Made by a program: the position numbers and the translations under genes
Notes under the pieces: model-generated
Told to the model about the DNA's origin: nothing
What the model saw: only the letters and a program-made list of their open reading frames with translations
Databases searched by the model: none
Shown here: positions 5,333-51,027 of the stretch, piece after piece
Numbering within the stretch: the stretch's first letter is position 1
Layout of the letters: the number at the start of each line of letters is the position of its first letter
Origin: Promethearchaeota archaeon
Lineage (GTDB): Archaea; Asgardarchaeota; Lokiarchaeia; Sigyniarchaeales; SOKP01
Length of the DNA: 64,000 nucleotides
Direction: 5' to 3'
Assembly (NCBI GenBank): GCA_008080735.1
Contig: SHMW01000006.1
Coordinates: 3,215 to 67,214, forward strand

Positions 5333-5377
5333 ATACACTTTAAAAGATTAACCAACTAATTAGAAATTATAAATATA

Positions 5378-9600: not shown

Positions 9601-9638
9601 AAAGAAAAAATTAATGAAAAAATAATTCAAATAAAAAG

Positions 9639-12084: not shown

Positions 12085-12090
12085 AAATAT

Positions 12091-13518: not shown

Positions 13519-13939
13519 AATTAGAATTAATTGGTTTACCTGTTCTATATAGTGTACTCATCATAGTTGCAACTTTTTTTTTTTTATCCTTTTTTTTAGT
13601 GTAAAGTGTAAAAAGATAGGTTCCAATTTTTCTGGTTTGATTGATTATTTCCCCATCCACATATAATATTTGCTCGGGATCGGGTGATGAATGATAGGTG
13701 ATATGACAATCTAATGCTACAGAAACATTATTTTTATTATTGCCTAAAACAGAGAATGCGGCATCAGCTAATCCATAGATTGCCCCTCCATGAGGTCGCC
13801 CGTAAAAATTGTTCAAATCCGATTTGAGTTTCATGTGCATTTTTACGGTATTTTCATTTAGCTCATCTAAGATTACACCTAGCTTTTGAGCGAAAAGGTC
13901 TTCTCTAAATTTTTCCTTTATAATCTCAATCTTTTTCAT
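13505..13939 (-). CDS. PaaI/hotdog-fold thioesterase
   Basis: 144 aa. GRPHGGAIYGLADAAFSVLG is the typical PaaI-family thioesterase motif. Overlaps the cofE start by 14 nt. Confidence 0.72.
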   Translation of the reverse strand: MKKIEIIKEKFREDLFAQKLGVILDELNENTVKMHMKLKSDLNNFYGRPHGGAIYGLADAAFSVLGNNKNNVSVALDCHITYHSSPDPEQILYVDGEIINQTRKIGTYLFTLYTKKKDKKKKVATMMSTLYRTGKPINSNFETQ

Positions 13940-13961
13940 TTTTTTCTTTATTAGGTAATTA

Positions 13962-35118: not shown

Positions 35119-37290
35119 TTATTTTAATTTATTCTTCTTATATATTTCATAAAACCAGTCTACAATATGTTGAAAGAAGAAACGCTCCCTTAATACATCA
35201 TAATGCGATTTTTCCCTGAGACTAGTGAGCTTGGCAATATCTTCTGAATTAATTTTGCCTTCCTTAATCAAATTCATTCTCGCTTTAAATTGGTCGACCA
35301 TATTTATTGGTCTCAGAATCACAGAAATCGCCTCTGAGATAGAATCCATTATTGTTTCAAAATTTTTATTTTTCATATAATTTTGATGGTGTGTTCTCAG
35401 CAAGAATGATTTAATTTGATTAATGAGGATATCTTTCTTATCAAAATTGATAAATTCCTTCTTTTTAATCAATTTATCCAGGTATTCGACTACTTCATTG
35501 ATAACCGCTCTTTCGAGGTTTAGATTTCTCATTTGTCTGCGCAACTTATTCAAAAACTGCCGTTTAAGAAACTGTTTATATTTTATGATGATTGCTTCAT
35601 TTTCCCGAATATCAGAACATATTTCCACTACTTCCCCTTTTGGTGTGGCATAAGTGAATCCATGGCCTTGAGGCCCCAAACCTCCAAGCAAAACCATTGA
35701 AAGGCTATGAAATCCATAGGTGTCTGTTGAGATTATTTCTTTTCTGTTATTTACAATATTTTTTGGAGATACTAAATGTTTTTTGATTTCTCTCTCTTCT
35801 CGTTCTTGTAGTGTACCATAATAATTAATTTTATATCGATAGACCATATTAAATTCTAAGAATCCATCTTCGGTGAGTCCTCCTCTTTCGGGGTTATAGT
35901 AATGTTTTTTGAATTCCTTAATGAAATGGAGGCTTGAACCCAAATTTTTAACACTCAATCCATATATAGAGTATGTGTTGAAGAAAGAATTCTTAATATA
36001 ATAAATCAACTGATCAATATCACTATAGAATGAATAGGCATTAGGATAATTTACAAAATACTCATATAGTTCCCGTGGAAGTTCTCTTGATACGAAATAG
36101 ATTAAATAATTATTCACATTTCCAAAAAGATCCTCTAAATTCGCGATAAAAAGTTTATCCTTTTTGATTCGATTAATCTTGACCATATCATATTCGTTTA
36201 ATTCCCTAATTAGTAAGCCAAATGTGTTGCAAAATCGTACTATGTCAATAATTTTTCCCAAACTCGAAGTTTGGTATCCCACGCTCACATCTTGAATACA
36301 ATCAATAATAAGTTTTGAAATAATCTCAAAACGATCTGGAATTTTTCTGGCGTCTATAAATATATCGAGTTTATCGGAATTTTTTACAAGTTGAGCGAAT
36401 TTTTCAAAATGACTTGCCTCCAAATCTAATGCTAATCCCTTGTAAAAACTCTCTTCAATTTTTTCTTTATTTTCCACTTTTGAGAGTAATTTAGAGAATT
36501 TTAGATTTCCTCCTTCATTAGATATAAGATGGTCAATTGCATATTTAATTTTTTTATATTCTCCCGATTGAAGAGAATCATTAATCGCATTAATTACTAT
36601 CTCTTGGATGTTATTCCGCTTAAGTTGATCATGTTGAATATCATTTTTTTCCAGAAAATTATAGAAATATATAAGATATTGTAAGTTCCCACTTTTTAGA
36701 AAATAGTCAAAAGAGTCTCGAAGCAATTGAACGATGAAACTAAATATTTTTTGATTTTCATCTTTTTTGTTAAATAATTCTCTTTGTGTTTTTGTATTTT
36801 TTTGGATCCAATCTCGTACATACATAAGAAAAATGGGAAGATTTTCGGTGTTATGATATATCTGTACATTTCTTTGGCATTGGCGACAAAAATAAATCAT
36901 TCTATTTTCATTAAATGCATAAGAACTCTGGGATATAGAAGAGCTGTTGCATTCCGAGCACCTCTTCTCAAAAAGAAGTCTTATAATTACATTTTGTAAA
37001 AATCTCTCCATTATTATTGAATTAAGAAAATCATATTCCAATAATCCATTTTCTTTCAGAGATATTAGATGGGTTCCATATTCCTTGAAAATCTTTTTAT
37101 AATAGAGGTTTTTTTTATGTTTTCCGTCGCTTTTAAATTGCTGCTTAATATTATAGATTTTCTCTGATAGTTCTATCTCTTTCGAAGCGATTTGTTTTCT
37201 TATTTTCTTTAAATCTATCTCGCCTTCTTTAATTACGTCAATGATAGTGATTTTTAGCTTATCAAAAAACTGCTCTGAGAAGATATGCAT
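35119..37290 (-). CDS. Large uncharacterised protein (helical, one CxxC...CxxC zinc-ribbon), upstream partner of the Roadblock gene
   Basis: 723-aa ORF. Zinc-ribbon-like CSECNSS...FCRQCQ at ~residue 110-140. No P-loop or other catalytic motif recognised. Confidence 0.6.
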   Translation of the reverse strand: MHIFSEQFFDKLKITIIDVIKEGEIDLKKIRKQIASKEIELSEKIYNIKQQFKSDGKHKKNLYYKKIFKEYGTHLISLKENGLLEYDFLNSIIMERFLQNVIIRLLFEKRCSECNSSSISQSSYAFNENRMIYFCRQCQRNVQIYHNTENLPIFLMYVRDWIQKNTKTQRELFNKKDENQKIFSFIVQLLRDSFDYFLKSGNLQYLIYFYNFLEKNDIQHDQLKRNNIQEIVINAINDSLQSGEYKKIKYAIDHLISNEGGNLKFSKLLSKVENKEKIEESFYKGLALDLEASHFEKFAQLVKNSDKLDIFIDARKIPDRFEIISKLIIDCIQDVSVGYQTSSLGKIIDIVRFCNTFGLLIRELNEYDMVKINRIKKDKLFIANLEDLFGNVNNYLIYFVSRELPRELYEYFVNYPNAYSFYSDIDQLIYYIKNSFFNTYSIYGLSVKNLGSSLHFIKEFKKHYYNPERGGLTEDGFLEFNMVYRYKINYYGTLQEREEREIKKHLVSPKNIVNNRKEIISTDTYGFHSLSMVLLGGLGPQGHGFTYATPKGEVVEICSDIRENEAIIIKYKQFLKRQFLNKLRRQMRNLNLERAVINEVVEYLDKLIKKKEFINFDKKDILINQIKSFLLRTHHQNYMKNKNFETIMDSISEAISVILRPINMVDQFKARMNLIKEGKINSEDIAKLTSLREKSHYDVLRERFFFQHIVDWFYEIYKKNKLK

Positions 37291-37362
37291 AGATCCAATT
37301 AATTTAAAACAAAATAAGGTAATAAAATTATGGTTGAGATATTATAAGTTGTGATCTAATTT

Positions 37363-37734
37363 TTAATCTAATAATCCGGCTATTTTCTGACTGACACTTT
37401 GAATGTTTAGAAAAACCATACCTAAACTCGCATCATTCGACGCCAGGACACAGAGTATTGCGTTTTCACCTGCGCGAGACAATATGATTAATCCATCAAG
37501 ACCTTCGATGAGAATTCTCTTCAAATCACCGCGCGCAAGCTCCTGAACTGCCCTTTCAGATACGCTAAGAATTGCAGCTGACATCGCGCTCACGATTCCA
37601 TCATTAACCTCACCCGACAGAGCAGAACAAATTGGTAAACCTTGAACAGACACGATAGCACTTCCTTGGATATCGGAATTAACTGCTTCTAGGTTGCGTA
37701 GTATGTCAGTTAGCTCAGCTATATTCTCGCTCAT
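37363..37734 (-). CDS. Roadblock/LC7 (MglB-like) domain protein
   Basis: 123 aa. LRNLEAVNSDIQGSAIVSVQGLPICSA...AAILSVSERAVQEL..GDLKRILIEGLDGLIILSRAGENAILCVLA matches the Robl/LC7 alpha-beta-beta-alpha-beta-beta-beta pattern. Confidence 0.8.
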   Translation of the reverse strand: MSENIAELTDILRNLEAVNSDIQGSAIVSVQGLPICSALSGEVNDGIVSAMSAAILSVSERAVQELARGDLKRILIEGLDGLIILSRAGENAILCVLASNDASLGMVFLNIQSVSQKIAGLLD

Positions 37735-37950: not shown

Positions 37951-38904
37951 ATGTCTGCTAAGAAAAATGAATCAGAGAAATCAGAAAAGGATGAAGAAGA
38001 TGAGCAGTTGAAATTGGATTCACTCAAAAAAGCTGGCAAAATTGCACAAGAAGTAAAAGAGTTTATAAAACCACAAATCAAAGTGGGTACGAAAGGATTA
38101 GAGATCGTAACTTCAGCAGAAAAAAAAATATCCGAATTGGGAGGTGCGTGTGCATTTCCCGTTAACTTATCCATAAATAATATCGCAGCTCATTATACCT
38201 CGCCACTTCGAGATGATGGTTTGACTATAGAAGAAAATGATCTCGTAAAAATAGATCTGGGTGTTCATATTGAAGGATATATTGTTGACACAGCATTTTC
38301 CGTAAATTTTAATCAGGAGAAGTTTTTACAAAATATTATTACCGCGACAGACACAGCAGTAGAAGCAGCAAAAATGATGGCAAAACCAGGTGTAAATACA
38401 AAAGATATTGGGAAGAAAATTGAAGATATCGTAAAAGGATTTAACTATAATCCAATCAAAGAACTCGGTGGGCATCAAATAGAGCGGTGGAGAGTCCATG
38501 GTACCAAGGCCCTTCCAGAATTAGGAACCCAAGGTGGAGACGAAATGGAAATAGGAGATGTATTCGCTGTTGAAATATTCGCTTCGACGGGGAGTGGGTC
38601 AGTCCATAGTACCAATAATTGTCATATTTATGCACTCAACCCATATACTGGGCGGGTTCCCTTGAGAAGAAAGAGTTCGAAGCAAATATTAGGTTTTGTA
38701 AATAGGAATTATAAAACATTGCCTTTTGCAGAAAGATGGTTAGGGGAGGAATTTCAAATAGGTGTCGCCTTTGGACTCCAAGAGCTTATACAGCAAGGAA
38801 AATTAAGAGAACACAATGTACTCTCAGAAGAAAAAGATGCCTATGTTGCTCAATCAGAGGAAACAATTTTGATCACAGAGGATGGCTATCAACAATTAAC
38901 ATAA
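37951..38904 (+). CDS. map: Methionine aminopeptidase, type 2 (archaeal/eukaryotic)
   Basis: 317 aa. FPVNLSINNIAAHYTSP, DLGVHIEGYIVDTAFS, GGHQIERWRVHG, FAVEIFAST, QSEETILIT (metal ligands D, D, H, E, E in the MetAP2 arrangement). Confidence 0.9.
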   Translation: MSAKKNESEKSEKDEEDEQLKLDSLKKAGKIAQEVKEFIKPQIKVGTKGLEIVTSAEKKISELGGACAFPVNLSINNIAAHYTSPLRDDGLTIEENDLVKIDLGVHIEGYIVDTAFSVNFNQEKFLQNIITATDTAVEAAKMMAKPGVNTKDIGKKIEDIVKGFNYNPIKELGGHQIERWRVHGTKALPELGTQGGDEMEIGDVFAVEIFASTGSGSVHSTNNCHIYALNPYTGRVPLRRKSSKQILGFVNRNYKTLPFAERWLGEEFQIGVAFGLQELIQQGKLREHNVLSEEKDAYVAQSEETILITEDGYQQLT

Positions 38905-38955
38905 ATACTCAACTTTATTCTAAAAAATATATCAAAACTTAATTCGCCAATAAAG

Positions 38956-40065
38956 ATGCGAAAATTAAATATCTGCCTTATCTCCTTTAAAATACCACCT
39001 GATTCTATGGATGGAACTGCTAAATTTTTTAGAGGTATTTATGAGTATTTGAAAAAACAAGGACATAATATTACCTTACTCACTGGAAAATGGAATTATA
39101 AATTACAAGATCCAGATATAAAACAAATCGATATTATACCAAGACGATTTTTTTGGATCTTTCCATTCTATATTGGTGTGATAAAATATCTAAGATCTCA
39201 CAAATTCGATATTATTCATGGAAATAATCCAAAAGGGGCACTTCCTATCATACTAGCAAATAAAAAACAATTTGGATCCACAATCCATGATCTAGGATTT
39301 TTTACTCGAATCCCATTTGAGAAGATTTTAATTAGATTTATTGCAAAAACATCAAGATTTATAACTACATGTTCAACTCAAATTAAGAAAGATTTGGTGA
39401 AAGAATTCCCAGATCTAAGCCCAAATAAGATCTTTAATCTTTATTCAGCAATAGAAGAGAAATTTATGCCCTTTCCCAAAAAAGCGAGAAAACTTAAAGA
39501 AAAGATGGGACTGGAAGGTCCTACCATATTATATATTGGTCGTGTTTCCTATTACAAAGGCGTAGATGATATTATTAGAGCTTACTATCTCGCCAAGAAA
39601 AAGATTCCGGAATTGAATCTGATTATCGGAGGTCTTCCAGATTTCAGGACTCAAAATCAATATGAATCATGGAAACAAAAATATAAGGATATATCATTCG
39701 TAGGTTATATCCCAGATGATCAAATTCCAATCTACTATAGTTTAGGAGAAATCTTCATAACATATTCATATGCATTTGAAGGATTTGGATTAACCCCGAT
39801 AGAAGCAATCGCATGCGGAACTCCCGTGATATGTTCATCGATTCCTGTATTCAAGGAAGTACTGCAAGATAATGCTATTTTTGTGAAACCCAGAAGCCCC
39901 AAATCACTTGCAGACGCCATAGTAGATTTAATAACCAATGATAAGAAAAGAGAAAACTTAATTGAAAAAGCTCGGCGCTTCATCCAACGCTATACTTGGC
40001 AAGAAGTTGGAGAAAAATTAGAAAAAGTCTATCAATTATTTCTAAAAATGAAAGAATCGGATTAA
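38956..40065 (+). CDS. Glycosyltransferase, GT4 (GT-B fold)
   Basis: 369 aa. ILYIGRVSYYKGVDD...LIIGG...FEGFGLTPIEAIACGTPVICS is the Glycos_transf_1 pattern. Confidence 0.8.
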   Translation: MRKLNICLISFKIPPDSMDGTAKFFRGIYEYLKKQGHNITLLTGKWNYKLQDPDIKQIDIIPRRFFWIFPFYIGVIKYLRSHKFDIIHGNNPKGALPIILANKKQFGSTIHDLGFFTRIPFEKILIRFIAKTSRFITTCSTQIKKDLVKEFPDLSPNKIFNLYSAIEEKFMPFPKKARKLKEKMGLEGPTILYIGRVSYYKGVDDIIRAYYLAKKKIPELNLIIGGLPDFRTQNQYESWKQKYKDISFVGYIPDDQIPIYYSLGEIFITYSYAFEGFGLTPIEAIACGTPVICSSIPVFKEVLQDNAIFVKPRSPKSLADAIVDLITNDKKRENLIEKARRFIQRYTWQEVGEKLEKVYQLFLKMKESD

Positions 40066-40097
40066 AGTGAGTTTCTACTTTAAAAAAGCGATTTTTT

Positions 40098-41228
40098 TTA
40101 ATGCAACCATCTTGTTTGCCCGAGAGTGATTAACCGATATCTCAATACTCTGTCATAATCATTCCAAAAACAGCTATAACATTCTGGGATATTTTCGCGT
40201 GAATCGATGAGCAACGATCTAAATTCTCTGTATTTTTTTCCGTTCCAGATTTCATGAAATGAATTTTTATAAATGTTTCCCATAACATATTTTTCGCTAG
40301 TCAGATAACAGCATGGTAAAACCTTTCCAGTTGCGGTGATATATGTGGAGATCCATGGAGTGAGACATGGGGTTTCGTTTTTTAAAGTTTTCCTATTTAA
40401 TAACTCTATTAATTTTTCACGCCAATTGATAAAAAATACTTCTTTCTGTGTTTCCCTTATAGAATCAATATCTTTACTTATTTTAGCGATTGCTTTTTTT
40501 AGTTTTTTATCTGTTGGAACAATTCCTGAATCCACTCCAAAATCAAAGACGGGCTCTAACCTAAATGAATCAAGTAATTTCCATTTTTTAAGATAATTAA
40601 ACATTGGTTCATATTCTTCGAGATTTTTAGATTGAAGACAGCAAAGAATTCGAATAATCGTCTTTTTTCTGTTAATTTTTGCAAGTAACTTCTCAAAATT
40701 TTCAAGGCAACGATGAAATGTTGAACTCATGGTTATTTCTTCAAACGACAGGGGATTTGTGCCGTGTAAAGAAAAAGTTAATATAGTAGGGGGACTTTCG
40801 ACCAATTTTTTGATATTAATATCATTCATTAACGACATGTTGGTCGGCATGGAGGTAGTTATTTTCTTGCGATTACATAATTCCAAGAATTTATAGATTT
40901 CCGTGTTCAATAATGGCTCTCCCAGTCCATTTAAAGTAAGATATAAAGGGTTTATATTCTCTACCAACCTTTTAAATGTTTTGTAGGAAATTATATTATT
41001 TAAAGTCCTAATCTTTTGGAGATTATGTCTGTCACACATAATACAATCGAAATTGCATCTGTCTGTAATTTCAATTTGAAGCCTGATGGGCCCGTCTTTT
41101 GAAGCGAGAGGCGCTCCTAATATTGAATAAAATAGAGCACTGAATGCTTTTTTAATTTTAAATAAGGAGGTGAACTGGTTATTTCCAAAAATTAGCAATA
41201 AATCCTGAAGCCGTCGTTTTAGTTCCAT
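40098..41228 (-). CDS. Radical SAM protein with SPASM-type C-terminal cysteine cluster
   Basis: 376 aa. ITDRCNFDCIMCDR (CX3CX2C). C-terminal CLTPW...GKVLPCCYL...CYSCFWN resembles a SPASM/twitch auxiliary cluster domain. Confidence 0.78.
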   Translation of the reverse strand: MELKRRLQDLLLIFGNNQFTSLFKIKKAFSALFYSILGAPLASKDGPIRLQIEITDRCNFDCIMCDRHNLQKIRTLNNIISYKTFKRLVENINPLYLTLNGLGEPLLNTEIYKFLELCNRKKITTSMPTNMSLMNDINIKKLVESPPTILTFSLHGTNPLSFEEITMSSTFHRCLENFEKLLAKINRKKTIIRILCCLQSKNLEEYEPMFNYLKKWKLLDSFRLEPVFDFGVDSGIVPTDKKLKKAIAKISKDIDSIRETQKEVFFINWREKLIELLNRKTLKNETPCLTPWISTYITATGKVLPCCYLTSEKYVMGNIYKNSFHEIWNGKKYREFRSLLIDSRENIPECYSCFWNDYDRVLRYRLITLGQTRWLH

Positions 41229-41328
41229 ATGTCTTTTCTTCCTTATTAAACCGTGGTCTTATAAATATTAAGTCTTAATCTTCTCAGAAGCGTAATAAAA
41301 ATATAAAGATTAAGTTTTAAAATCTTCT

Positions 41329-41538
41329 TTAAGCAGGAGAGAATAGCCAAGTAAAAACACCGAGATGGGCTAATATAACCACTGCTATAAGGGCTACGGC
41401 AGAGATCGCAGTTGCTATAGGACTAATTTTAATACCTATAGAAGAGTCTTCAAAAAATCTCATTAACCCCGCTCCACCCATAGGCATAGGTGCTGATCCC
41501 GATCTTCTTTTCTTTCTCCTTGATTGGCGTTTTGACAT
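41329..41538 (-). CDS. Sec61-beta / archaeal Sec-beta translocon subunit (tail-anchored)
   Basis: 69 aa. Basic N-terminus (RQSRRKKRRSGS), GGAGLMRFFEDSSIGIKISP (cf. eukaryotic Sec61-beta GGMWRFYTEDSPGLKVGP), and a single C-terminal TM. Confidence 0.75.
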   Translation of the reverse strand: MSKRQSRRKKRRSGSAPMPMGGAGLMRFFEDSSIGIKISPIATAISAVALIAVVILAHLGVFTWLFSPA

Positions 41539-41692
41539 CGATTATTTAAAGGTTTTTAATTGTATAAAAAATATAATCATCTAAAACTAAAAAACTATTT
41601 CTCTCCAATAAAGATGATTCACTTTACCTTAAAAAAGATATTTTAGGCAAAATGTCTTTTATTTTACTAAAACAAAGCTTCTTTATACTTCA

Positions 41693-41989
41693 ATGAAAAT
41701 TAAAGAATTCCAAGATCTCATGCGGGAGCTATATTATCACCAAGATTCTAAGAGAGGTCTTAATAAAACTTTTTATTGGCTAATAGAAGAAGTAGGGGAA
41801 CTTTCCAGCGCTCTGAAAGCGAAAGATTTAGATAAGAAGAATATTGGAGAAGAAATAGCAGATATTGTAGCATGGATATGTTCACTAGCAAATTTATTGG
41901 ATGTAGATATTCAATCCGCTATACTTCAGAAGTATCCAAAAAAATGCCCTAAATGTATGAAAAATCCTTGCGAATGTGGAACAGAGTAA
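41693..41989 (+). CDS. MazG-like nucleotide pyrophosphohydrolase (small all-alpha NTP-PPase)
   Basis: 98 aa. LIEEVGELSSAL ... EEIADIVAWICSLANLLDVD is the EExxE...ExxD MazG pattern. C-terminal CPKC..C.C knuckle. Confidence 0.72.
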   Translation: MKIKEFQDLMRELYYHQDSKRGLNKTFYWLIEEVGELSSALKAKDLDKKNIGEEIADIVAWICSLANLLDVDIQSAILQKYPKKCPKCMKNPCECGTE

Positions 41990-42094
41990 TAAAAAATCGA
42001 CTGATTATATCAGATTTTTAAAGAAAATAAACCTTAATAAATTTCTAAAATTGATAATATTAATTTAAGTAGTTAATGAAGAAAGGAAAAATTA

Positions 42095-43939
42095 GTGCCA
42101 ATGCCGAATAAAAAGAAGTTCTATGTGCTACTATCCATTTTTATCACAACTTTTATTCTAAGCTCTGTGATTCCAAGATTTTTGAATAAATCTTCTCCAT
42201 TTTCCGTTTATAATGAACCACTACACTTATCTGGCAATTTAGAGGGGGCATCAGATATTACTATCGCCAATATCAATCGAACGATTAGTATAAACGGATA
42301 TGGTTTAGTCAATATTGAGGATAATCTTACAATTAGAAATGATTTTGAAAACCCCGTATCATCGATTTTTATGGGGATTCCTACAAATATCTTAGAAGAT
42401 TTAATATACTATAAAGCAAAGGGAAGTGGGGGTAATACATTGTTAGCTGAGGATACTGGGTTATTAATGGACACAGATAAAAATATGATAGAGATCTATT
42501 TCGATTCTCCTCTACTGCCCGGACAGAGAAAAACGATAATTTTTTCACAATCCTATAAGGATTTACTTAAATATGAACCATCGGGGTCTCAACAGAAAAT
42601 CTCTTATAGTGGACTTATTTATCCTTCTATACCGTATAAGGGACAAGGAAGCATAATTGCTGTTATAGAATTACCTATTGGTGCTGGGAGTATTGAAGAT
42701 GATTGGGGAACTACACAAGCTAATCATATCACTTTTTCCATAGAAGATTTGCCACAAACATATATAGAACCCTTTTTAGAAAATTTGGGTGATAATAGAA
42801 CCATAGATGTTTCAATGGCACATTCTTCAATCACAAACTTAGAAATTCAAGAATCCACAAGACAAATAACAATTTCGCCGTGGGGAACCATAAGAGTGGA
42901 GGAAGATATACGTATTAAAAATCTTGGTTCTATCTCGGTTCAGAGATTTAATCTTAGGATTCCTGATCCAGCAATTAATGTAGAAACAAAAGATAATTTA
43001 GGAAATATTGAAGGAACCACGGTAACTGAGTTACCAAACAACCCAAAATCGAAACAGGTTAATTTAGATCTCTCAAATAATCGAGTAACAATGCAACCAA
43101 ATTCAAGTTTCCAATTCACATTACGTTACCAGTTAAATTTAGGAATTTATCTAAATTTTGACTGGTTTAGACAATCTGTCCAATTAGATGTGATAATGAC
43201 GAATTTTGATTATTTAGTAAAAAATCAGCTAACCCAGATAAGAATTGAAGGCTCTCTAAATATAGATCAAATCTCTGATCTTCCAGATATATACGATGAG
43301 ACTATTAATTCGCAAATTCTCATCTTTGAGTCAGATTATGTGAGTAATCTCGAAGAACGAGAAATTCTGCTCACCTATACAATTGATATCTTTGAAATGT
43401 TGATGCGACCGATAATTCTTCTTTTAGTAATTGCAGGTGTTTGCTCAGCTCTTATTGTCATAATTAAGAAGAGAAAGGAATTAGGGATATTACCTAAGAT
43501 AGAGAAAGAACAACTACCATTAAGGGAAATTAGAGAATTCTGTTCTCTTTATGAGCAGAAGAACGCACTAACATTAGAAATTCGGCAAGCAGAAGAAGAA
43601 TTAAAAAGACGTAAACTTACAAAGAAACAATATCGTAATCTTGTTGATAAAAATGAATCACGAATAAAACAGATTGACGAGGAGATCAAGCCATTTAAGA
43701 AGGAATTAATGGAAGCAAGTCAAACTTTTGAAAATATCGTACAAAAGCTTGATGTCTTAGAAGCTGAACGTCAAACTGTTGAAGATGGGTTGAAATTACT
43801 TGATTCGAGATATCGTAAAGGTAAATTGCCTTCTCGATCTGCTTATGTAAAACTAACAAATGATTTTCTCAAAAGGAGAAAAAAGATCGATAGAACGATA
43901 AGTCGCTTCATTCAGCAATTACGTTCATATTTACTTTAA
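42095..43939 (+). CDS. Ribophorin I (OST1)-like type I membrane protein
   Basis: 614 aa (GTG start, ATG at 42101). Signal-anchor, then a ~400-aa beta-rich ectodomain opening with NINRTISINGYGLVNIEDNLTIRNDFENPVSSIF (ribophorin I-like opening). One TM (RPIILLLVIAGVCSALIVII) and a ~155-aa K/E/R coiled-coil tail. Confidence 0.6.
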   Translation: MPMPNKKKFYVLLSIFITTFILSSVIPRFLNKSSPFSVYNEPLHLSGNLEGASDITIANINRTISINGYGLVNIEDNLTIRNDFENPVSSIFMGIPTNILEDLIYYKAKGSGGNTLLAEDTGLLMDTDKNMIEIYFDSPLLPGQRKTIIFSQSYKDLLKYEPSGSQQKISYSGLIYPSIPYKGQGSIIAVIELPIGAGSIEDDWGTTQANHITFSIEDLPQTYIEPFLENLGDNRTIDVSMAHSSITNLEIQESTRQITISPWGTIRVEEDIRIKNLGSISVQRFNLRIPDPAINVETKDNLGNIEGTTVTELPNNPKSKQVNLDLSNNRVTMQPNSSFQFTLRYQLNLGIYLNFDWFRQSVQLDVIMTNFDYLVKNQLTQIRIEGSLNIDQISDLPDIYDETINSQILIFESDYVSNLEEREILLTYTIDIFEMLMRPIILLLVIAGVCSALIVIIKKRKELGILPKIEKEQLPLREIREFCSLYEQKNALTLEIRQAEEELKRRKLTKKQYRNLVDKNESRIKQIDEEIKPFKKELMEASQTFENIVQKLDVLEAERQTVEDGLKLLDSRYRKGKLPSRSAYVKLTNDFLKRRKKIDRTISRFIQQLRSYLL

Positions 43940-43960
43940 TACTAATTGGTGGTTTTGATA

Positions 43961-44590
43961 ATGAAATTGTGGTTATTTGATATCTTGGCTTGTCCGATAT
44001 GTAAGCATTTTCCACTAAAACTTTTTATCTTTTCCTATCAAACAGAAGAAGAGATATTTAGGTCTTATCTTAGTAATTATCAAAAAAGTGATAGTGTGAG
44101 TTTAAAGTCACAAGACACAATACAGATCGACTATGATAATGAACATCAAATTCTCATAAAAGATAATATCGTGATTGAGCCAAAACCACTTGTAGACTAT
44201 ATGGATGCTCTACTCTCTAGTATTAAAGAATTAAATCATATTGAAGATCGCAGCCCTTATGAGACAAGTAAAAAATGCTTAAATCTTGCAAAAGAATCCA
44301 TATATAATGATTTGAAGAACCTTTCGCAAAATCTTAATCTGGACGGGTTTCAGGAGCGATTGGCTGAGCTTGAATTTCTAAATAAATTGAAAGTTGATGC
44401 GGAAATCGATTCTGGACTTCTTTTATGTGAATCGTGTAAACGGTGGTATCCAATTATTGAAACAATTCCTCGCATGCTTCCCGATGAATATCGAGATAAA
44501 GAATCCGAGCTCCAATTCTTAGAAAGCAAAAAAAATTTATTAGATGAAAAATTTTTCACATTAGATTTAAAACCATTTGCTCTCAAATGA
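43961..44590 (+). CDS. Trm112-like zinc-knuckle protein with ~125-aa central insertion
   Basis: The N-terminus MKLWLFDILACPICKHFPLKL and C-terminus DSGLLLCESCKRWYPIIETIPRMLPDE together form the Trm112/UPF0434 pattern and are separated by a helical insert. The ORF track starts at TTG 43946; ATG 43961 is more plausible. Confidence 0.65.
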   Translation: MKLWLFDILACPICKHFPLKLFIFSYQTEEEIFRSYLSNYQKSDSVSLKSQDTIQIDYDNEHQILIKDNIVIEPKPLVDYMDALLSSIKELNHIEDRSPYETSKKCLNLAKESIYNDLKNLSQNLNLDGFQERLAELEFLNKLKVDAEIDSGLLLCESCKRWYPIIETIPRMLPDEYRDKESELQFLESKKNLLDEKFFTLDLKPFALK

Positions 44591-44643
44591 TTTTTTAAAT
44601 TGTATTGAATTATAATATCATACAACAGCGTCTATAAAACCAT

Positions 44644-44745
44644 AGCCCGGTGGTGTAGAACGATATATGAAATTATATCGTGCACAACGGCCAAGCATCC
44701 GGGGCTTTGAACCCTGTGACCACAGTTCGAATCTGTGCCGGGCTA
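44644..44745 (+). tRNA. tRNA-Gln (anticodon UUG) with ~29-nt intron in the D-loop; CCA not encoded
   Basis: Hand-folded. Acceptor AGCCCGG/CCGGGCT + discriminator A. D-stem GTGT/GCAT. Anticodon arm CGGGG-CTTTGAA-CCCTG (TTG at 44707-44709). T-arm CACAG-TTCGAAT-CTGTG. The exon sequence matches the typical archaeal tRNA-Gln AGCCCGGTGGTGTAG..GGCCAAGCAT. Confidence 0.85.
44659..44687 (+). other. tRNA intron at a non-canonical (D-loop) position (boundaries +/-1-2 nt)
   Basis: 38 nt lie between the D-stem strands instead of ~9. The insert contains a perfect 7-bp hairpin, CGATATA-tgaaat-TATATCG. Confidence 0.7.
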
Positions 44746-44989
44746 TAATTTCATTTTAAAAAGCTTACTAATTATCTTTAGATTAAACAGTGATTTTAGC
44801 AATTTTAAAGGAAAAAGTTGCAATATGATCGGATTATCTTTTTTTGAAGAAATATACAATCTTTTCCAAATTTTAATTTTTTGAAAATATCTTCAACAAC
44901 TCGCTTAATATAGTTCCCCTACGTACTATTCATGCTAAATTTTAATATGAGAAATAACTATTAAACTCAAAAGCACATATTATTATAAA

Positions 44990-46084
44990 ATGAGTCTTTC
45001 GGGAAGGAATATCTGGATTGATATTGAGCAACCAAAAGCAGCAATCATGTTTAATTCTCTTATAGAACAATTCCAAGAAGATGGTGTTAATTTACTAATT
45101 ACTGCAAGAGATTACGATTCTACTTTTCAAATATTAGACGATCATGATGTTGACTATATCAAGGTGGGGAAACATGGTGGAGCGAGCTTAGAAGAGAAAT
45201 TAAAGACTCATATAAAAAGATTAGAAGAGCTTTTTACTTATGTTGCTGAGTTTAATCCAGACTATCTAGTCAACTTTATTTCTGTGGAAGCTATTAGAAT
45301 TGCTTATGGACTTCAAATTCCTTCAATCGGGTTTAATGATGAGCCGAGAAATGAGCCCGTGTGTAAATTGATTTTTCCGTTTATAGACAAACTAATTACC
45401 CCCAAATGTATTCCCAAGGAATCCTATATAGAATTATATGCGGATCCTAAGAAAATTATTCGATACAATGGAATCGATGAAATTGGATGGTTATCAAATT
45501 TCAAACCTGATCCATCAGTTTTAGAACACTATGATTTACAAATGGGAAACTACGTGATTATGCGAAGTGAACCCTCTGCGGCATGCTATTTTATAAACAA
45601 ATTAAAGCCCGATGAGACGATGCTTAGTGAAATCTTTCCCCAAATATATAAAGAATTTCCCAACCATAAATATTTTCTACTGGCACGAAACCGAAATCAA
45701 GAAGAATTTTTACGGAAAACTCTAAAGAAATATGAAGATAATCCCAATTTAATAATCACTCGTTATTTACCCAATCTAGATGATTATTGTTTTTATAGTG
45801 GATTGGTTATTAGCGGGGGTGGAACTATTGTAAGGGAATCGAGTCTCTTGAGCGTGCCGAGTATAGAATTTTTCCCCGGTCCAACGGCACCGCAAGAAAT
45901 GTTTTTAAAGAACAATGGATTTCCCTTGGAACATATAGAAGAATTAAATAGAATCATAGACAGATCAATCCATGTACTTAATCAAGGATTCGATAATGAC
46001 AGAATTAAGCATTTTAAAAAAAAAATTCAACAATTTGAAAATCCCGTGAAGATTTGCTATAATTATGTGCGGATTCATATATAG
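44990..46084 (+). CDS. DUF354-like GT-B fold protein (putative glycosyltransferase)
   Basis: 364 aa. NIWIDIEQPKAAIMFNSLIEQFQEDGVNLLITARDYD resembles the DUF354 N-terminus. C-terminal GLVISGGGTIVRESSLLSVPSIEF resembles the GT-B nucleotide-sugar binding region. Confidence 0.55.
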   Translation: MSLSGRNIWIDIEQPKAAIMFNSLIEQFQEDGVNLLITARDYDSTFQILDDHDVDYIKVGKHGGASLEEKLKTHIKRLEELFTYVAEFNPDYLVNFISVEAIRIAYGLQIPSIGFNDEPRNEPVCKLIFPFIDKLITPKCIPKESYIELYADPKKIIRYNGIDEIGWLSNFKPDPSVLEHYDLQMGNYVIMRSEPSAACYFINKLKPDETMLSEIFPQIYKEFPNHKYFLLARNRNQEEFLRKTLKKYEDNPNLIITRYLPNLDDYCFYSGLVISGGGTIVRESSLLSVPSIEFFPGPTAPQEMFLKNNGFPLEHIEELNRIIDRSIHVLNQGFDNDRIKHFKKKIQQFENPVKICYNYVRIHI

Positions 46085-46128
46085 AAACTATACAAAAATT
46101 AAATAAAAATTACTTAATACTCTTATAA

Positions 46129-47475
46129 ATGATATATCCAACTAATATACGATGGGATTTTTATAGCATCTTGTATCTAAGTATCGCAGGGATTATCGGC
46201 TTTGTTATAACATATTTGATTATGCCCTACATTATCAAATATATGAAGAAAAAAGGTTATGTTGGAACAGATATCCACAAAAATACCCGTCCAGAAGTTG
46301 CCGAATCTGGTGGATTAGGAATGATGATCGGATTTATCTTCCCCTCCATTTTTCTGGCAATCATTTTTACCGATTATAGAAATATCATCTTAATTGTGTT
46401 ATTTACTGTCATTATTGCAGGGATTATTGGTTTTATTGATGATAGAGTCAGATTGAGGACCCGCTATAAATTACTTTTAACCTTAACGATTGGATCTGCC
46501 GTGTTTTTGGCTAATTATCTTGGGCTCATCGCTATTCAGAATCCTGTACTGCCGATTCTGAGTCGTTTACGGCTTAATATGATTTATCCTATCTTGATCC
46601 CTTTGGTAGTAATTGTGTTTGCGAATACCGTAAATATGTTAGAGGGATACAACGGAGAGGGTTCTGGAACGTGTATTATTGCCATTGGATTTTTATTAGT
46701 ATGCAGTTTTATCTGGAATACTATGGAAGGATTAATGTTCTCTATAATTTCTCTTTCCGTAATTATCCCTTTTTATCTCTTTAATAGATATCCTGCTAAA
46801 GTATTTCCCGGAGATGTTGGTACCTTATCGATGGGTGTTATGATAGCAAGCATCGCCCTCTTTGGTGGGCTACTCGCTGCAGCTTTCTGTACGCTATTAA
46901 CGCATATATTTAATAGCTTTTACTATATCTCCTCTGTGAGAGGGTTTTTTGAGAGTAAAGAAATTCATGAATTAAGAGATGATATTGTTTTACTTAAAGA
47001 TGATAGGATTAAAGCATCTGAACAAAAAAGTGCTTTAATAACAGTGCCTCGGATGATATTAGCAAAAGGGCCCTTGTCAGAATCACAATTAGTGAAAAAA
47101 ATTTACTTGATTTCCATTATTAGCGGATTTTTAGGTATATTGACCACACTATTAATGTGTTTGACTTTGGAGAAAATTAACATTTTTTGGGTTTTTATTT
47201 TTTCGCTGCCAAGTCTGGTGATTATTATATTGCTGATGTACTTTTTTCCGAGAATTAGAGATATTGCTATTCAAATGCTTATCCTATATTTTATTGGAAT
47301 TATTATATTGTATTTAATTGATATTATAATTATCCCAATTCAAATTACTATTGATCTGTATTTTATTAAAATACCTCTCAATATTGTAGTATCTCTTATT
47401 GCGGTCTTACCTGGACTTGGTGTGTGGTATATTTTAACAATAATTTATTTAAATAATCAACTAGAGTTAGAATAA
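46129..47475 (+). CDS. UDP-GlcNAc:dolichyl-phosphate GlcNAc-1-phosphate transferase family (AglH/ALG7/MraY-WecA superfamily)
   Basis: 448 aa, polytopic. GFIDDR, FANTVNMLEGYNGEGSG and FPGDVGTLSMG motifs of glycosyltransferase family 4 (polyprenyl-P HexNAc-1-P transferases). Extra ~120-aa hydrophobic C-terminal extension. Confidence 0.8.
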   Translation: MIYPTNIRWDFYSILYLSIAGIIGFVITYLIMPYIIKYMKKKGYVGTDIHKNTRPEVAESGGLGMMIGFIFPSIFLAIIFTDYRNIILIVLFTVIIAGIIGFIDDRVRLRTRYKLLLTLTIGSAVFLANYLGLIAIQNPVLPILSRLRLNMIYPILIPLVVIVFANTVNMLEGYNGEGSGTCIIAIGFLLVCSFIWNTMEGLMFSIISLSVIIPFYLFNRYPAKVFPGDVGTLSMGVMIASIALFGGLLAAAFCTLLTHIFNSFYYISSVRGFFESKEIHELRDDIVLLKDDRIKASEQKSALITVPRMILAKGPLSESQLVKKIYLISIISGFLGILTTLLMCLTLEKINIFWVFIFSLPSLVIIILLMYFFPRIRDIAIQMLILYFIGIIILYLIDIIIIPIQITIDLYFIKIPLNIVVSLIAVLPGLGVWYILTIIYLNNQLELE

Positions 47476-47748
47476 TCAATAATTCAAGAATAGAGGATTT
47501 TATATTCAAATATATAGAAATCTATTAATTAGAAATCATAGGAGATTTAACTGAACAAAAATTATCGACTGGTTCTCTCTATTATAGTATTATTTAGCTC
47601 CATAACAGCCTTTTTCTTAATTAATTGGCTTTTTTCAATTGATATATTTGGTCTTTTTACAAATTGGAGATTCATTATCACATTAATTCTATATTTAGTT
47701 TGTTTAGAGGAGATTTATATTTGGGTAAAAAATGGTAAACGAAGCGAA

Positions 47749-50034
47749 ATGTCTGATATCATCGCACTTTTGTTTTTTTTCTTCTTTATCTATTTTATCA
47801 CTGAAGACTTTCTCACATCTCTTATGGGATCGTTTAGTATTTATCTTTGGATAGGAGTGGCAGAATTAAAAGACTATCCCGTGATAAATAAGATTTTGGT
47901 AATTTCTTTAGTCACATATAACGTTATTTTTATCTCTGGATTAATTTCAGCATATCTCAACGATCCTTTCCTATTGAATACTTCGTTTGCATTTTCATTT
48001 TGGATTATTCTAATATTGGGATTCATTCTTTTTGGCAGAAAGTATATCGTAGTCTGGAGATTTATGAGCCCTCAATATTTAACTCTTTTTCTCTATCTTC
48101 TAGGGTGGATTGGAGTTGTTTTTATAAATCAATATACTCCGATCGATTTTTACAGATACATTTATCTAGTGCTAATTATTGTAAACATTATAATCTATTT
48201 CTCTTCTGGATTTTTATTGGATAAACTCCTTGGAATTAAGAGAATTAGAGACGTGACAGTTGAAAAACTTGTGGAAGAAGTCAAAAGCGATTTAAATATT
48301 AAAGGTAGAGTAAAAGTTGGATTTGGACAATATCCAATATTAAACGCTATGGCATATGGTTCCTTTTTCGATAAGAGAATAGCAATTATAGCAGAAGGCC
48401 TTGATAATCTCCCAGAGGATGAAATTAGGGGAATTGTCGCGCATGAATTAGCCCATACTAAGGGAAACCATACCTTTATCTTAGCTTTAATCACAATTAT
48501 GGATCTCATTATTCGATGGATTTTTGGATTTCCCGCCACCTATTATGATTATACTTTTGGATCTCCTCAAATACCCTTTATCCTTTTCTTGGTAATCAAT
48601 TTTGGTATTTATATAATACTATATTTTTTCGTGAGGATTTTGGAAGGATATGCAGATAAGAGGGCTAAAACAGGAGGCTATGGACAAGAACTTGTGAAAG
48701 CATTATATAATCTAGAAAGTTTTTATGCATCTGGAAGAGAAATTGGATTAAATACCATGCTATTATGCGATGAAAAGATCTCAAGAGAAAACAAAATGCT
48801 GGATTATGTTAGTACGGCACAATATATTAATCAATCAATGATTAAACCGTCAAAAATTTCCCTTTTAGGAAATTTTCTGAACTCTCATCCACCAACCTAC
48901 CATAGAATATTGGCGATTTTAAGCGAAGATATTAATCCCTACAAAGAAACATTATTACCTTTATTGTATCTAAGAAAAAAAAATCAGAAAAAATTTGCTC
49001 AAAAATATTATCAAGCAAGAATAAATTTTCAGACTATTGCAAATCAAAAGTTTAAAGAGTTCTTCCGTATTGAAGATATCTCAAAATTCTTACACGATTT
49101 AGAACTCGATGAAAAATATAAATATGACTTTCAAAAGAGCTTCTTATTTAAAAACATAATTAATGGTGATTATAAATATGGAAATTTGATATCCTTAAAG
49201 ATTAAAGATGATATTTCTGATAATTTCTGTTTTAAGATTTTTAATTACAAATCTAAAAAGATTGAGTTTTTACCACCTTCCCATTTTACAAAAACGCAAG
49301 TAAATATAGGTGAACATTATATTTTCTCAAAAAAAAACGTGCTGAAACTTGAAAATATTCAATTTGATAAGGACTCTAAAAGTGGATTTTATATTTTTAC
49401 CGATAAGAACAATAATCTTATCAAAAAACCCATTAAAAAAACTAAAATTCCTTTTTCCATCGAAAAGATTCAAAATTTTCTTAATAAAGATGTATTTCTC
49501 AAGAGAAAAGGTTTATTAGGATTAGCTGAATGCACGGCTCTTCATAAAAAAGAAAATTTAAAGGAATCGAAAATAGAATTAAAAAATTCAATGGGTGAAA
49601 ATGGTGAAAATGGTGAAGCCATGGTTTTAACCCGTAAATTAAAAGATTTGATAATTAAACCGAAAAATATTCAATTTGAAATTATAAAAAATGAGAGCAA
49701 TTTAGAAAACTCAAAAAAACTTTTAGAATGGATGAGAAACAAACAGATACGAGCATATTTTTATTTGAAAAAACCAGTAAATAATATAGAAATAGGGTAT
49801 GTCGAAAAAGTTAATTATAATCAGACTTCAGAAGAGGACCTTAGAAACAAGCATTTATCAATAGAAATTAGTACAATTTTCAATGAATTAAAAATATTAC
49901 AACAAGATAAAATTGAATTTGTAAGCTTTAGCTACAAAACGGGGATTATCCAATTAAAATCTGAAACAAGTTTCTTTTCCAAAATTGGGTATTATCTTTT
50001 TAAAAAGATAAAGCCTCAAGAGATTTTGATTTAG
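47749..50034 (+). CDS. M48-family zinc metalloprotease (HtpX/Ste24 family) with large C-terminal extension
   Basis: 761 aa. Multi-TM N-terminus, NAMAYGSFFDKRIAII...IRGIVAHELAHTKGNH (HEXXH). ~370-aa K/N-rich C-terminal region of unknown family. The in-frame open extension 47551-47748 lacks a canonical start. Confidence 0.8.
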   Translation: MSDIIALLFFFFFIYFITEDFLTSLMGSFSIYLWIGVAELKDYPVINKILVISLVTYNVIFISGLISAYLNDPFLLNTSFAFSFWIILILGFILFGRKYIVVWRFMSPQYLTLFLYLLGWIGVVFINQYTPIDFYRYIYLVLIIVNIIIYFSSGFLLDKLLGIKRIRDVTVEKLVEEVKSDLNIKGRVKVGFGQYPILNAMAYGSFFDKRIAIIAEGLDNLPEDEIRGIVAHELAHTKGNHTFILALITIMDLIIRWIFGFPATYYDYTFGSPQIPFILFLVINFGIYIILYFFVRILEGYADKRAKTGGYGQELVKALYNLESFYASGREIGLNTMLLCDEKISRENKMLDYVSTAQYINQSMIKPSKISLLGNFLNSHPPTYHRILAILSEDINPYKETLLPLLYLRKKNQKKFAQKYYQARINFQTIANQKFKEFFRIEDISKFLHDLELDEKYKYDFQKSFLFKNIINGDYKYGNLISLKIKDDISDNFCFKIFNYKSKKIEFLPPSHFTKTQVNIGEHYIFSKKNVLKLENIQFDKDSKSGFYIFTDKNNNLIKKPIKKTKIPFSIEKIQNFLNKDVFLKRKGLLGLAECTALHKKENLKESKIELKNSMGENGENGEAMVLTRKLKDLIIKPKNIQFEIIKNESNLENSKKLLEWMRNKQIRAYFYLKKPVNNIEIGYVEKVNYNQTSEEDLRNKHLSIEISTIFNELKILQQDKIEFVSFSYKTGIIQLKSETSFFSKIGYYLFKKIKPQEILI

Positions 50035-50073
50035 CAATAAAGTTTAATTTTAATAATTTTTTTTAAAATCTAT

Positions 50074-51027
50074 ATGTTTAATCAGATACGAAATATTATA
50101 CATTTAATCAGAGTAAGGCAATATTATAAAAACGTTTTAATTTTCGTTGGGTTGTTTTTTAGTGTAAATCTATTTACGTTTAGCTATTGGTATTTATTAA
50201 TTATTGGATTTATTTTACTATGTCTTACATCTTCCATCAATTATATTGTAAATGATATATTGGATATTGAAAGTGATAAAAAACATCCAGAAAAGCTAAA
50301 AAAAAAACCTCTTGCTTCAGGTGAGTTATCTATTTCTTTTGCAATTGGTTTATTAGTTTTAATAATTCTCACAATTGTAATTTGCTTAATCTTTATCGTT
50401 CCAAATATTACTTTTGCTATTTTGCTATTATTAATTATTATCACGGGGCAACTCTATAACCACGTGTTCAAGAATTTTGCATTTATCGATATTTTAACCT
50501 TATCAACGGGATATTTATGGAGAGCATTAGCGGGATGCGTTTTAATAAATCAATATATTTCCGCGTGGTTATTTCTTTCTATATTTGAAGTTGCATTATT
50601 TTTGGTGATTGCTAAAAGGAAAGGAGATTTAATGATCTTAGGTAATAAGGAAGATGCAATTAAACATAAGAAAGTGTATAATCAATATTCAATAAAACTG
50701 CTCGATCAATTTCATGTTATCACGGCTGGCTCTATTTTTATGACCTATAGTCTGTATTTAATCTTCAAATTTGACTTATTCTCCCCTGACCAATTCAATC
50801 CCAATGAATACCTTACCATCCTCACAATACCCATTTTATTATTTGTATTAATGCGATATATGTATTTAACATCAGCAGAGCCAGAGATCGCCAGAAATAC
50901 AGAAAAGGCGATCACAGATACACAAATATTAATCGCGGGACTCATTTTAGGTGCCGTATTATTTTATTCGTTTTACTTCAGTCAAATTATTGACATTATT
51001 AACCTTATCTTAAATTTTAATCTATAA
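50074..51027 (+). CDS. UbiA-family prenyl-phosphate transferase, decaprenyl-phosphate phosphoribosyltransferase-like
   Basis: 317 aa, ~8 TM. NYIVNDILDIESDKKHPEKLKKKPLASGELS matches the N..vND..D.e.D..HP.K..RP.A.G motif of the DPPR-synthase subgroup of UbiA enzymes. Confidence 0.75.
   Translation: MFNQIRNIIHLIRVRQYYKNVLIFVGLFFSVNLFTFSYWYLLIIGFILLCLTSSINYIVNDILDIESDKKHPEKLKKKPLASGELSISFAIGLLVLIILTIVICLIFIVPNITFAILLLLIIITGQLYNHVFKNFAFIDILTLSTGYLWRALAGCVLINQYISAWLFLSIFEVALFLVIAKRKGDLMILGNKEDAIKHKKVYNQYSIKLLDQFHVITAGSIFMTYSLYLIFKFDLFSPDQFNPNEYLTILTIPILLFVLMRYMYLTSAEPEIARNTEKAITDTQILIAGLILGAVLFYSFYFSQIIDIINLILNFNL

Follow-up and report, generated by a model that had tools for sequence, protein, structure and literature searches.

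Does an open reading frame (ORF) from an Asgard archaeon that resembles ribophorin I encode a genuine counterpart of this eukaryotic oligosaccharyltransferase (OST) subunit and, if so, with what does it work? The question is raised by a 64,000-nucleotide stretch of a Promethearchaeota archaeon (GTDB Lokiarchaeia; Sigyniarchaeales; contig SHMW01000006.1 of assembly GCA_008080735.1), hereafter the window, meaning the whole stretch analysed (GC content ~32%), in which the ORF at 42095-43939 is divergent from a small gene for a Sec61-beta protein. Our analyses indicate that the ORF probably encodes a Lokiarchaeia-type OST1/ribophorin I orthologue, i.e. a large non-catalytic OST subunit that docks the ribosome at the translocon. 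The two ORFs, and the regions of the larger one, are as follows.

42095-43939, forward strand: probable OST1/ribophorin I orthologue, 614 residues from a GTG start (Pfam, Foldseek, family profile)
42095-42190, forward strand: N-terminal signal sequence or signal anchor, residues 1-32 (hydropathy; AlphaFold helix 6-30 with low predicted local distance difference test, pLDDT, scores)
42227-43384, forward strand: predicted extracellular (lumenal-equivalent) beta-rich region, residues ~45-430 (AlphaFold secondary structure, pLDDT 81-95)
43388-43480, forward strand: single transmembrane helix, residues 432-462 (AlphaFold helix; hydropathy peak at residues ~436-457)
43520-43933, forward strand: predicted cytosolic four-helix bundle, residues 476-613 (AlphaFold; match to 8WHN)
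41329-41538, reverse strand: Sec61-beta, 69 residues, the tail-anchored beta subunit of the SecY/Sec61 channel (Pfam Sec61_beta)

A preliminary description, made from the letters of the window alone, had placed both ORFs at these positions and read the larger as ribophorin I-like. Both are present there, and the larger passes the Pfam Ribophorin_I profile (PF04597), scoring 55.6 bits where the gathering score is 25. The match covers residues 56-285, equivalent to profile positions 2-235 of 437, and begins at the NINRTISINGYG segment (residue 56 aligning with profile position 2), in line with the earlier proposal that the ectodomain opens in the manner of ribophorin I. Chance is excluded for both ORF identities, the Pfam matches lying above the curated cut-offs with expectation values (E) of 6.3e-15 for OST1 and 5e-11 for Sec61-beta. 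The start codon of OST1 has an alternative, the gene call of JGI on its 110,708-bp contig Ga0374083_0481067 of metagenome 3300035158 beginning at the ATG at 42101, two codons further on, which gives 612 residues. Human RPN1 was not significantly detected in a single-sequence phmmer search (E=0.83); a profile of the archaeal family reaches it at E=4.3e-9.

The fold was compared using an AlphaFold model (35 homologues, mean pLDDT 83.8), which comprises a beta-rich ectodomain, one transmembrane helix and four tail helices. The eight highest-ranked Foldseek matches in the PDB are, without exception, chains of human RPN1 or yeast Ost1 (E 2e-32 to 3e-21), which bears out the ribophorin I assignment at the level of the predicted fold. 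The best of them, human 8b6l_O (E=2.1e-32), aligns over 609 columns including the tail, such that the proposed eukaryotic ribophorin I layout with a long tail held up; it is followed, in order, by 6s7o_E, 8pn9_E and 6s7t_E, and then by yeast 8agb_E, 7oci_A, 6ezn_A (E=3.7e-23) and 6c26_1 (E=2.9e-21). Overall, these matches have target-normalised TM-scores of 0.56-0.71 at sequence identities of 14-18%, with the ectodomain superposing on the lumenal domains of yeast Ost1 and human RPN1 at 0.66-0.71 (root-mean-square deviation, rmsd, ~5 Å). The same lumenal fold and single transmembrane helix are present in human RPN1 (6S7O chain E, 8B6L chain O) and yeast Ost1 (6EZN chain A, 6C26 chain 1). The cytosolic helical bundle is common to the window protein and human RPN1, whereas the modelled yeast Ost1 chains, of 432-438 residues, align over the ectodomain and transmembrane helix only.

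The ninth fold match is 8WHN, a crystallographic structure of the OST1 cytosolic domain from the cultured Lokiarchaeon MK-D1, which is a four-helix bundle with the topology of the human domain (Carilo et al. 2024, PMC11417166). It is matched with a target-normalised TM-score of 0.86, an rmsd of 2.2 Å and 42% identity in the fold alignment. By sequence, the tail (residues 471-614) matches 8whn_A at E=1.3e-32, or 2.4e-45 with the family profile. On the combined evidence of profile, modelled fold and solved tail structure, ORF 42095-43939 encodes an authentic ribophorin I/OST1 in an archaeon.

The predicted topology is of type I, with an N-terminal signal sequence, a single transmembrane helix near the C terminus and a tail predicted to be cytoplasmic. 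The hydrophobic N terminus, the ~400-residue beta-rich ectodomain and the single membrane span of the preliminary description are all recovered by hydropathy and in the model. At the N terminus, a KKK n-region precedes a hydrophobic stretch at residues 10-28, as seen in hydropathy and charge; the ectodomain is acidic, with 27 Lys and Arg against 52 Asp and Glu residues, and carries five N-x-S/T sequons; KKRK follows directly after the transmembrane helix; and the tail beyond the membrane, of ~156-159 residues, has a net charge of +13 to +14. This charge distribution (KKK, KKRK, a basic tail and an acidic, sequon-bearing ectodomain) places the tail in the cytoplasm, as had been proposed.

The tail had been described as a K/E/R-rich coiled coil of ~155 residues. 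That length is close to the one measured; the coiled coil did not survive, because the AlphaFold model and the 8WHN match both point to a compact four-helix bundle, with helices at residues 476-504, 510-541, 543-574 and 581-613. The coiled-coil families in Pfam and NCBIfam matched by the tail (YwqH-like, DUF3450 and SMC) are weak and all fall below their cut-offs. The tail is also the most conserved part of the OST1 family, with dense invariant columns from P475 to Y612.

Asgard homologues of Ost1/ribophorin I and Ost3 were reported before 2023, as cited by Eme et al. 2023 (PMC10307638); PMC8993221 names the earlier report as Zaremba-Niedzwiedzka et al. 2017. Eme et al. added Asgard Ost2, Ost4, Ost5, Swp1, Wbp1 and subunits of the TRAP (translocon-associated protein) complex, of which Ost2, Wbp1 and Swp1 were reported only in Heimdallarchaeia (PMC10307638). 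MK-D1 (Candidatus Prometheoarchaeum syntrophicum) encodes Sec61 alpha, beta and gamma, OST1, OST3/6, STT3, and TRAP alpha, beta and gamma; the C-terminal domain of its OST1 pulls down human ribosomes, and the signal peptide of its OST1 is functional in HeLa cells, where it brings about endoplasmic reticulum targeting, cleavage and glycosylation (PMC11417166). The MK-D1 protein (WP_147663064.1/QEE16185.1) is in the same length class as that of the window (607 versus 612-614 residues) and shares its layout of signal sequence, beta-rich ectodomain, one transmembrane helix and basic four-helix bundle. The experimental data concern the MK-D1 protein, and the window protein is characterised here by sequence and model.

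By analogy with these systems, we infer that the window OST1 would assemble with AglB and the SecYE-beta channel and would bind ribosomes. Its N-terminal signal sequence would place the beta-rich ectodomain on the outside of the cytoplasmic membrane, in which the single helix would anchor the protein; an archaeal OST1 is expected in this membrane, since internal membranes are lacking in MK-D1 (PMC11417166). The basic bundle of ~140 residues would then bind the translating ribosome at the SecY/Sec61 channel from the cytoplasmic side, and AglB/STT3, encoded elsewhere in the genome, would thereby be held beside the channel exit, such that nascent chains could be N-glycosylated as they emerge. The divergent 69-residue gene would supply Sec61-beta, the tail-anchored subunit of that channel. 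The preliminary description had left the partners of the protein wholly open, which goes too far, since relatives encode STT3/AglB, Ost3/6, Ost4/5 and TRAP subunits elsewhere in their genomes (PMC11417166, PMC10307638; for STT3 also PMC11284389).

The assignment of the neighbour as a tail-anchored Sec61-beta is supported by the Pfam Sec61_beta profile (PF03911), which it passes with 42.9 bits against a cut-off of 27, and by a sole hydropathy peak that starts at residue 44 of 69. It has a basic N terminus, SKRQSRRKKRRSG, and the motif GGAGLMRFFEDSSIG ahead of the transmembrane segment; a tail anchor, a motif before the membrane span and a basic cytosolic N terminus are common to this protein, to eukaryotic Sec61-beta and Sbh1 and to archaeal Sec-beta. 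Its start codon lies 556 bp from that of OST1 on the opposite strand, close to the ~560 bp given earlier. Searched singly against the PDB, the sequence matches only eukaryotic Sec61-beta/Sbh1 chains (mammalian E=4.3e-4), and with a profile built from 28 orthologues mammalian Sec61-beta reaches 28 bits (1.7e-5) and Sec-beta of M. jannaschii 13.5 bits (E=0.53). The NCBIfam archaeal Sec61beta model (NF002318) is not reached (47.1 bits against 55), which fits the better score against eukaryotic Sec61-beta and is no argument against membership of the wider Sec61-beta family. The earlier epithet 'eukaryote-like' is thus true of the sequence and not of the size, because at 69 residues the protein is intermediate between those of M. 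jannaschii (53), yeast (Sbh1, 82) and mammals (96).

The OST1 family is broad among Asgard archaea. A word-indexed search gave 163 relatives, the best of them 92% identical; the 120 of these that were listed are of 553-644 residues, come from Promethearchaeota metagenome-assembled genomes and bear, if they are named at all, the name 'hypothetical protein'. In an exhaustive profile search over 1.84 billion cluster representatives, 570 proteins were recovered at E<=1e-3, 159 of them at E<=1e-30, from which 96 full-length representatives cluster into ~25 groups. Wherever a hydropathy scan located the second transmembrane segment, the signal sequence was followed by an ectodomain, one transmembrane helix and a basic tail of 148-169 residues, and this layout is kept down to ~20% identity to the window protein. 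The window OST1 falls in group 9 and that of MK-D1 (QEE16185.1) in group 12, the two being ~26-31% identical overall.

An alignment-based homologue search for the distant groups returned proteins of the MK-D1 type only. The MK-D1 protein itself carries the annotation 'hypothetical protein'; a precomputed Pfam Ribophorin_I match is lacking for 11 of the 15 proteins that came back with it, whereas the window protein passes clearly. That most MK-D1-type proteins lack such a match may explain a conflict in the literature, in which Ost1 is stated to be absent from P. syntrophicum in PMC11284389 and its tail is crystallised in PMC11417166.

The genes around OST1 and Sec61-beta bear on the question of partners. 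The window holds a conserved block of ~12 genes (37951-51027), the theme of which is nascent-chain processing and translocation, the synthesis of lipid-linked glycans and the quality control of membrane proteins; in order, the genes encode type II methionine aminopeptidase, GT4 glycosyltransferase, Sec61-beta, MazG, OST1, Trm112-like, tRNA-Gln, DUF354, Alg7/DPAGT1-like transferase, HtpX-like M48 protease and UbiA-family protein. Its further members, together with one inserted gene, are as follows.

37951-38904, forward strand: type II methionine aminopeptidase (M24), 317 residues, at one conserved border of the block (NCBIfam TIGR00501, 283.1 bits against 222.65)
38956-40065, forward strand: GT4-family glycosyltransferase, 369 residues (Pfam Glycos_transf_1, 124.4 bits)
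40098-41228, reverse strand: radical S-adenosylmethionine (SAM)/SPASM protein, 376 residues (Pfam SPASM, Radical_SAM)
41693-41989, forward strand: MazG-like nucleoside triphosphate pyrophosphohydrolase, 98 residues (Pfam MazG, 41.7 bits against 22)
43961-44590, forward strand: long Trm112-like protein, 209 residues, with a split zinc ribbon and a ~110-residue helical insert (Pfam Trm112p)
44644-44745, forward strand: tRNA-Gln(UUG) with a 29-nucleotide D-loop intron at 44659-44687 (ARAGORN after intron removal)
44990-46084, forward strand: DUF354 protein, 364 residues (Pfam DUF354, 144.6 bits)
46129-47475, forward strand: AglH/Alg7-like polyprenyl-phosphate N-acetylglucosamine-1-phosphate (GlcNAc-1-P) transferase, glycosyltransferase family 4 (Pfam Glycos_transf_4, PF00953, 106.2 bits)
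47749-51027, forward strand: HtpX-like M48 membrane metalloprotease (761 residues) and UbiA-family protein (317 residues), the downstream conserved edge (Pfam Peptidase_M48, UbiA)

Linkage was counted by tblastn, with the neighbouring proteins of the window as queries, at 80 OST1 loci taken from one genome per GTDB species, all of them in group 9; the OST1 nearest to that of the window among them is 67% identical. The Trm112-like gene is directly downstream of OST1 in all 80, and Sec61-beta is directly upstream in 78; at the remaining two, the contig ends 5 and 281 bases from the OST1 start. MazG and the AglH-like transferase are each present at 71 loci, DUF354 at 69, the GT4 glycosyltransferase at 66, the M24 peptidase at 63, the M48 peptidase at 58 and the UbiA-family protein at 56, and tRNA-Gln lies downstream of the Trm112-like gene at 73. 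At 74 of 77 loci, Sec61-beta and OST1 are divergent genes; their median separation is 154 bp, and Sec61-beta is inverted at three loci. The median gap of 24 bp between OST1 and the Trm112-like gene suggests an operon; in the window the latter starts 21 bp past the OST1 stop, and the two genes are probably co-transcribed.

The adjacency is kept through local rearrangements within group 9, in which MazG and DUF354 switch sides and Sec61-beta is inverted at the three loci. In most relatives, DUF354 and MazG are upstream of Sec61-beta. The 98-residue MazG-like gene, which the preliminary description had passed over, sits between Sec61-beta and OST1 in the window and mostly on the far side of Sec61-beta in relatives; the place of DUF354 in most relatives is occupied here by the radical SAM/SPASM gene, DUF354 having moved downstream of the Trm112-like gene. 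The radical SAM/SPASM gene, between the GT4 gene and Sec61-beta, is found at two of the 80 loci (L001, L064), on the contig of the window and in the 92% identical relative, and is a lineage-specific insertion outside the conserved block.

Beyond group 9, one or two loci per group were examined for gene order. In group 12, the MK-D1 type, the trio Sec61-beta (reverse), OST1 (forward) and Trm112-like (forward) is intact at both loci examined, with all flanking genes different; thus MK-D1-type relatives share the trio with the window, whereas the AglH, DUF354 and GT4 genes that flank it in the window are absent around it in group 12. Overall, Sec61-beta is linked to OST1 in groups 9 and 12, the Trm112-like gene is so in these two and in group 7, and an Alg7-like neighbour recurs in groups 9, 7 and 18; in group 18 the AglH-like gene is upstream of OST1 and a ferredoxin gene downstream. 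The contig of group 13 is too short to inform on gene order, and that of group 1 (L085) is of 3.1 kb.

The linkage data also bear on the idea that the protein acts at the cell surface, for example as an adhesin or envelope anchor, with no part in translocon or OST, and that it retains only an ancient ribophorin I ancestry and stands beside Sec61-beta merely by inherited order. The complete synteny of the ~12-gene block within the group of the window means that adjacency there could reflect shared ancestry, and beta-sandwich ectodomains are common among surface proteins, with integrin and M1 peptidase beta-sandwich proteins appearing as weak fold matches from rank 10 (E ~1e-7 or weaker). We nevertheless consider this idea highly improbable: the trio persists where all flanking genes have been replaced (in group 12, with OST1 ~30% identical) and through the inversions within group 9, the match to the architecture of human RPN1 extends over the full length, cytosolic bundle included, and ribosomes are bound by the homologous tail of the MK-D1 protein (PMC11417166).

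For the assignment as a ribosome-docking OST subunit, there are several points on the other side of the balance. The scanned ORFs of the window gave no match to STT3/AglB (PF02516), as the preliminary description had held, nor to Ost3/6 or SecY/SecE, leaving Sec61-beta as the sole linked partner. A hidden STT3/AglB was considered and rejected, since PF02516 is matched by none of the scanned ORFs, including those of 723, 497 and 487 residues that have no Pfam family; the five ORFs outside the scan, of 123-335 residues, are too short for STT3. This absence agrees with the glycosylation genes of MK-D1, which are dispersed and form no cluster around aglB (PMC11284389). Group 7 keeps OST1 and the Trm112-like gene together, with an AglH-like gene divergent upstream and no Sec61-beta, and at the loci examined in groups 1, 2 and 18 neither Sec61-beta nor Trm112 is beside OST1; in groups 7 and 18, no Sec61-beta ORF of at least 30 residues lies in the gap of ~500 bp that precedes OST1. 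Ribosome binding is known only with human ribosomes and for the MK-D1 protein, which is ~30% identical to that of the window overall; no OST complex of an Asgard archaeon has been purified; and the N-terminal hydrophobic stretch may be either a cleaved signal or a signal anchor.

It is conceivable, though in our view unlikely, that the protein is a true OST1 homologue working mainly with the Sec translocon as a ribosome receptor or docking factor, with N-glycosylation proceeding independently of it. Such a role would suit the finding that the gene which stays with OST1 is Sec61-beta and not aglB, both in group 9 (78/80) and in the MK-D1-type group, and the strong conservation of the tail, the ribosome-binding part; ribosome binding is, moreover, the sole activity demonstrated experimentally (PMC11417166), and the dispersal of the MK-D1 glycosylation genes away from aglB (PMC11284389) fits as well. 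A pure ribosome receptor would, however, have no need of a ~390-residue beta-rich ectodomain that keeps the fold of the eukaryotic OST subunit. The Alg7-like enzyme, for the first step in lipid-linked glycan synthesis, is repeatedly found by OST1, even in distant groups without the Sec61-beta link, and Ost3/6, Ost4 and Ost5 are also encoded in Asgard genomes (PMC10307638). The better supported proposal is the published one, in which OST1 would couple translocation to N-glycosylation by AglB.

The Alg7-like enzyme of the window has human DPAGT1 as its best PDB match (5.4e-12), ahead of MraY (5.5e-8), and by these matches appears closer to the dolichyl-phosphate GlcNAc-1-P transferases than to MraY. 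The DUF354 protein is probably a GT-B-type sugar-nucleotide enzyme, as suggested by a weak Glyco_tran_28_C match (E=0.043) and, in sequence and profile searches of the PDB, at best a weak match to UDP-GlcNAc 2-epimerase (E=0.0076). An identification of DUF354 with Agl24 or Alg13/14 gained no support, the Agl24 paper making no mention of DUF354 and a literature search returning only unrelated matches. The NCBIfam matches of the M48 and UbiA-family proteins, to HtpX and decaprenyl-phosphate phosphoribosyltransferase, respectively, are both below their cut-offs.

The constant companion of OST1 in group 9, the long Trm112-like protein, passes Pfam Trm112p (PF03966) with 41.8 bits against a cut-off of 22. 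Archaeal Trm112 (6zxw_H) aligns with it as two halves, at residues 6-36 and 149-183 (214-residue numbering). The AlphaFold model (pLDDT 93) has as its 18 highest-ranked fold matches only eukaryotic Trm112/TRMT112 chains, over ~180-190 columns and with weak E-values (best 2.5e-3), and archaeal Trm112 aligns with the model over only ~30 columns. The protein is thus predicted to be a eukaryote-style Trm112, with the zinc-ribbon halves at both ends and a helical insert between them. A literature search, in which not all journals were covered, gave no paper naming both Trm112 and Asgard.

The constancy of the trio invites a bolder proposal, which we regard as speculative and rather improbable: that Sec61-beta and OST1, sharing a bidirectional promoter, and the long Trm112, in an operon with OST1, form a functional module in Lokiarchaeia-type Asgard archaea, with OST1 serving foremost as the ribosome-docking arm of the translocon and Trm112 as a dedicated cytosolic partner, acting on the OST1 tail or on membrane-associated translation machinery. 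Were it correct, the coupling of ribosome, translocon and OST would predate eukaryotes as a co-regulated unit. The linkage of Sec61-beta, OST1 and Trm112 was not found described in the literature searched, including two key papers (not all journals being covered), and the conserved pairing of OST1 with Sec61-beta and a long Trm112 gene appears to be previously undescribed.

The tRNA-Gln gene that follows is interrupted. Standard scans of the raw window sequence (ARAGORN, and Rfam at gathering thresholds) found no tRNA or Rfam RNA; the gene was first spotted by eye as an island of 50% GC within a gap of 21-31% GC, and splicing out 44659-44687 in silico gave a perfect 73-nucleotide cloverleaf in ARAGORN. 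By eye, the intron position varies among relatives (D-loop, anticodon loop, variable/T-arm or T-loop), some having two introns and some none.

The submitters' labels on the 80 loci include Hod-, Thor-, Odin- and Hermodarchaeota; we do not accept them at face value, because the neighbouring proteins are 50-80% identical across all loci. One contig of 27.9 kb (L074, DATKTW010000090.1) is labelled 'Candidatus Nanopelagicaceae bacterium' and carries the full Asgard OST1 block in the same order as another locus (L072); it is most likely mis-binned or mislabelled. In the closest relative, a 10.8-kb contig (L081, JGI 3300037504), OST1 is 92% identical to that of the window and the Trm112-like protein only 71%, and divergence is therefore uneven across neighbouring genes.

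Elsewhere in the window, a surface/MoxR-type run at 26-11132 (forward strand) includes a transglutaminase-like protein with Ig-like domains (1047 residues), a MoxR AAA_3 ATPase and a DUF58/von Willebrand factor A-type protein, whose N-terminal BatD-like part has a weak Pfam TRAP_beta match below threshold (17.7 against 22.4 bits). Cofactor F420 genes lie at 11155-15017 (reverse strand), encoding CofD (2-phospho-L-lactate transferase) and a fusion of F420-0:gamma-glutamyl ligase with a nitroreductase, with a radical SAM gene nearby. There are leucine-rich-repeat proteins at 24185-25030 (reverse) and 32971-35070 (forward), the larger of which also has a HEAT-repeat match, and a penicillin-amidase-family protein of 858 residues at 29813-32389. 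At 35119-37734 (reverse), the 723-residue ORF, which has no Pfam or NCBIfam family, is directly downstream of a Roadblock/LC7 protein on the same strand (123 residues, Pfam 56.1 bits).

The protein itself adds nothing new to the family, given that Asgard members were reported before 2023 and that the structure of the tail and its ribosome binding were published in 2024. The window does hold a well-preserved copy of an OST1 with a predicted ribosome-binding tail, which belongs to the proteins linking Asgard archaea with the origin of the translocon of the eukaryotic endoplasmic reticulum. That OST1 travels with Sec61-beta, a long Trm112 and often an Alg7-like gene, and not with aglB, is independent evidence for its tie to the translocon in Asgard cells, and the trio, along with the Alg7-like gene, constitutes a concrete and testable set of genes for work with cultured strains.

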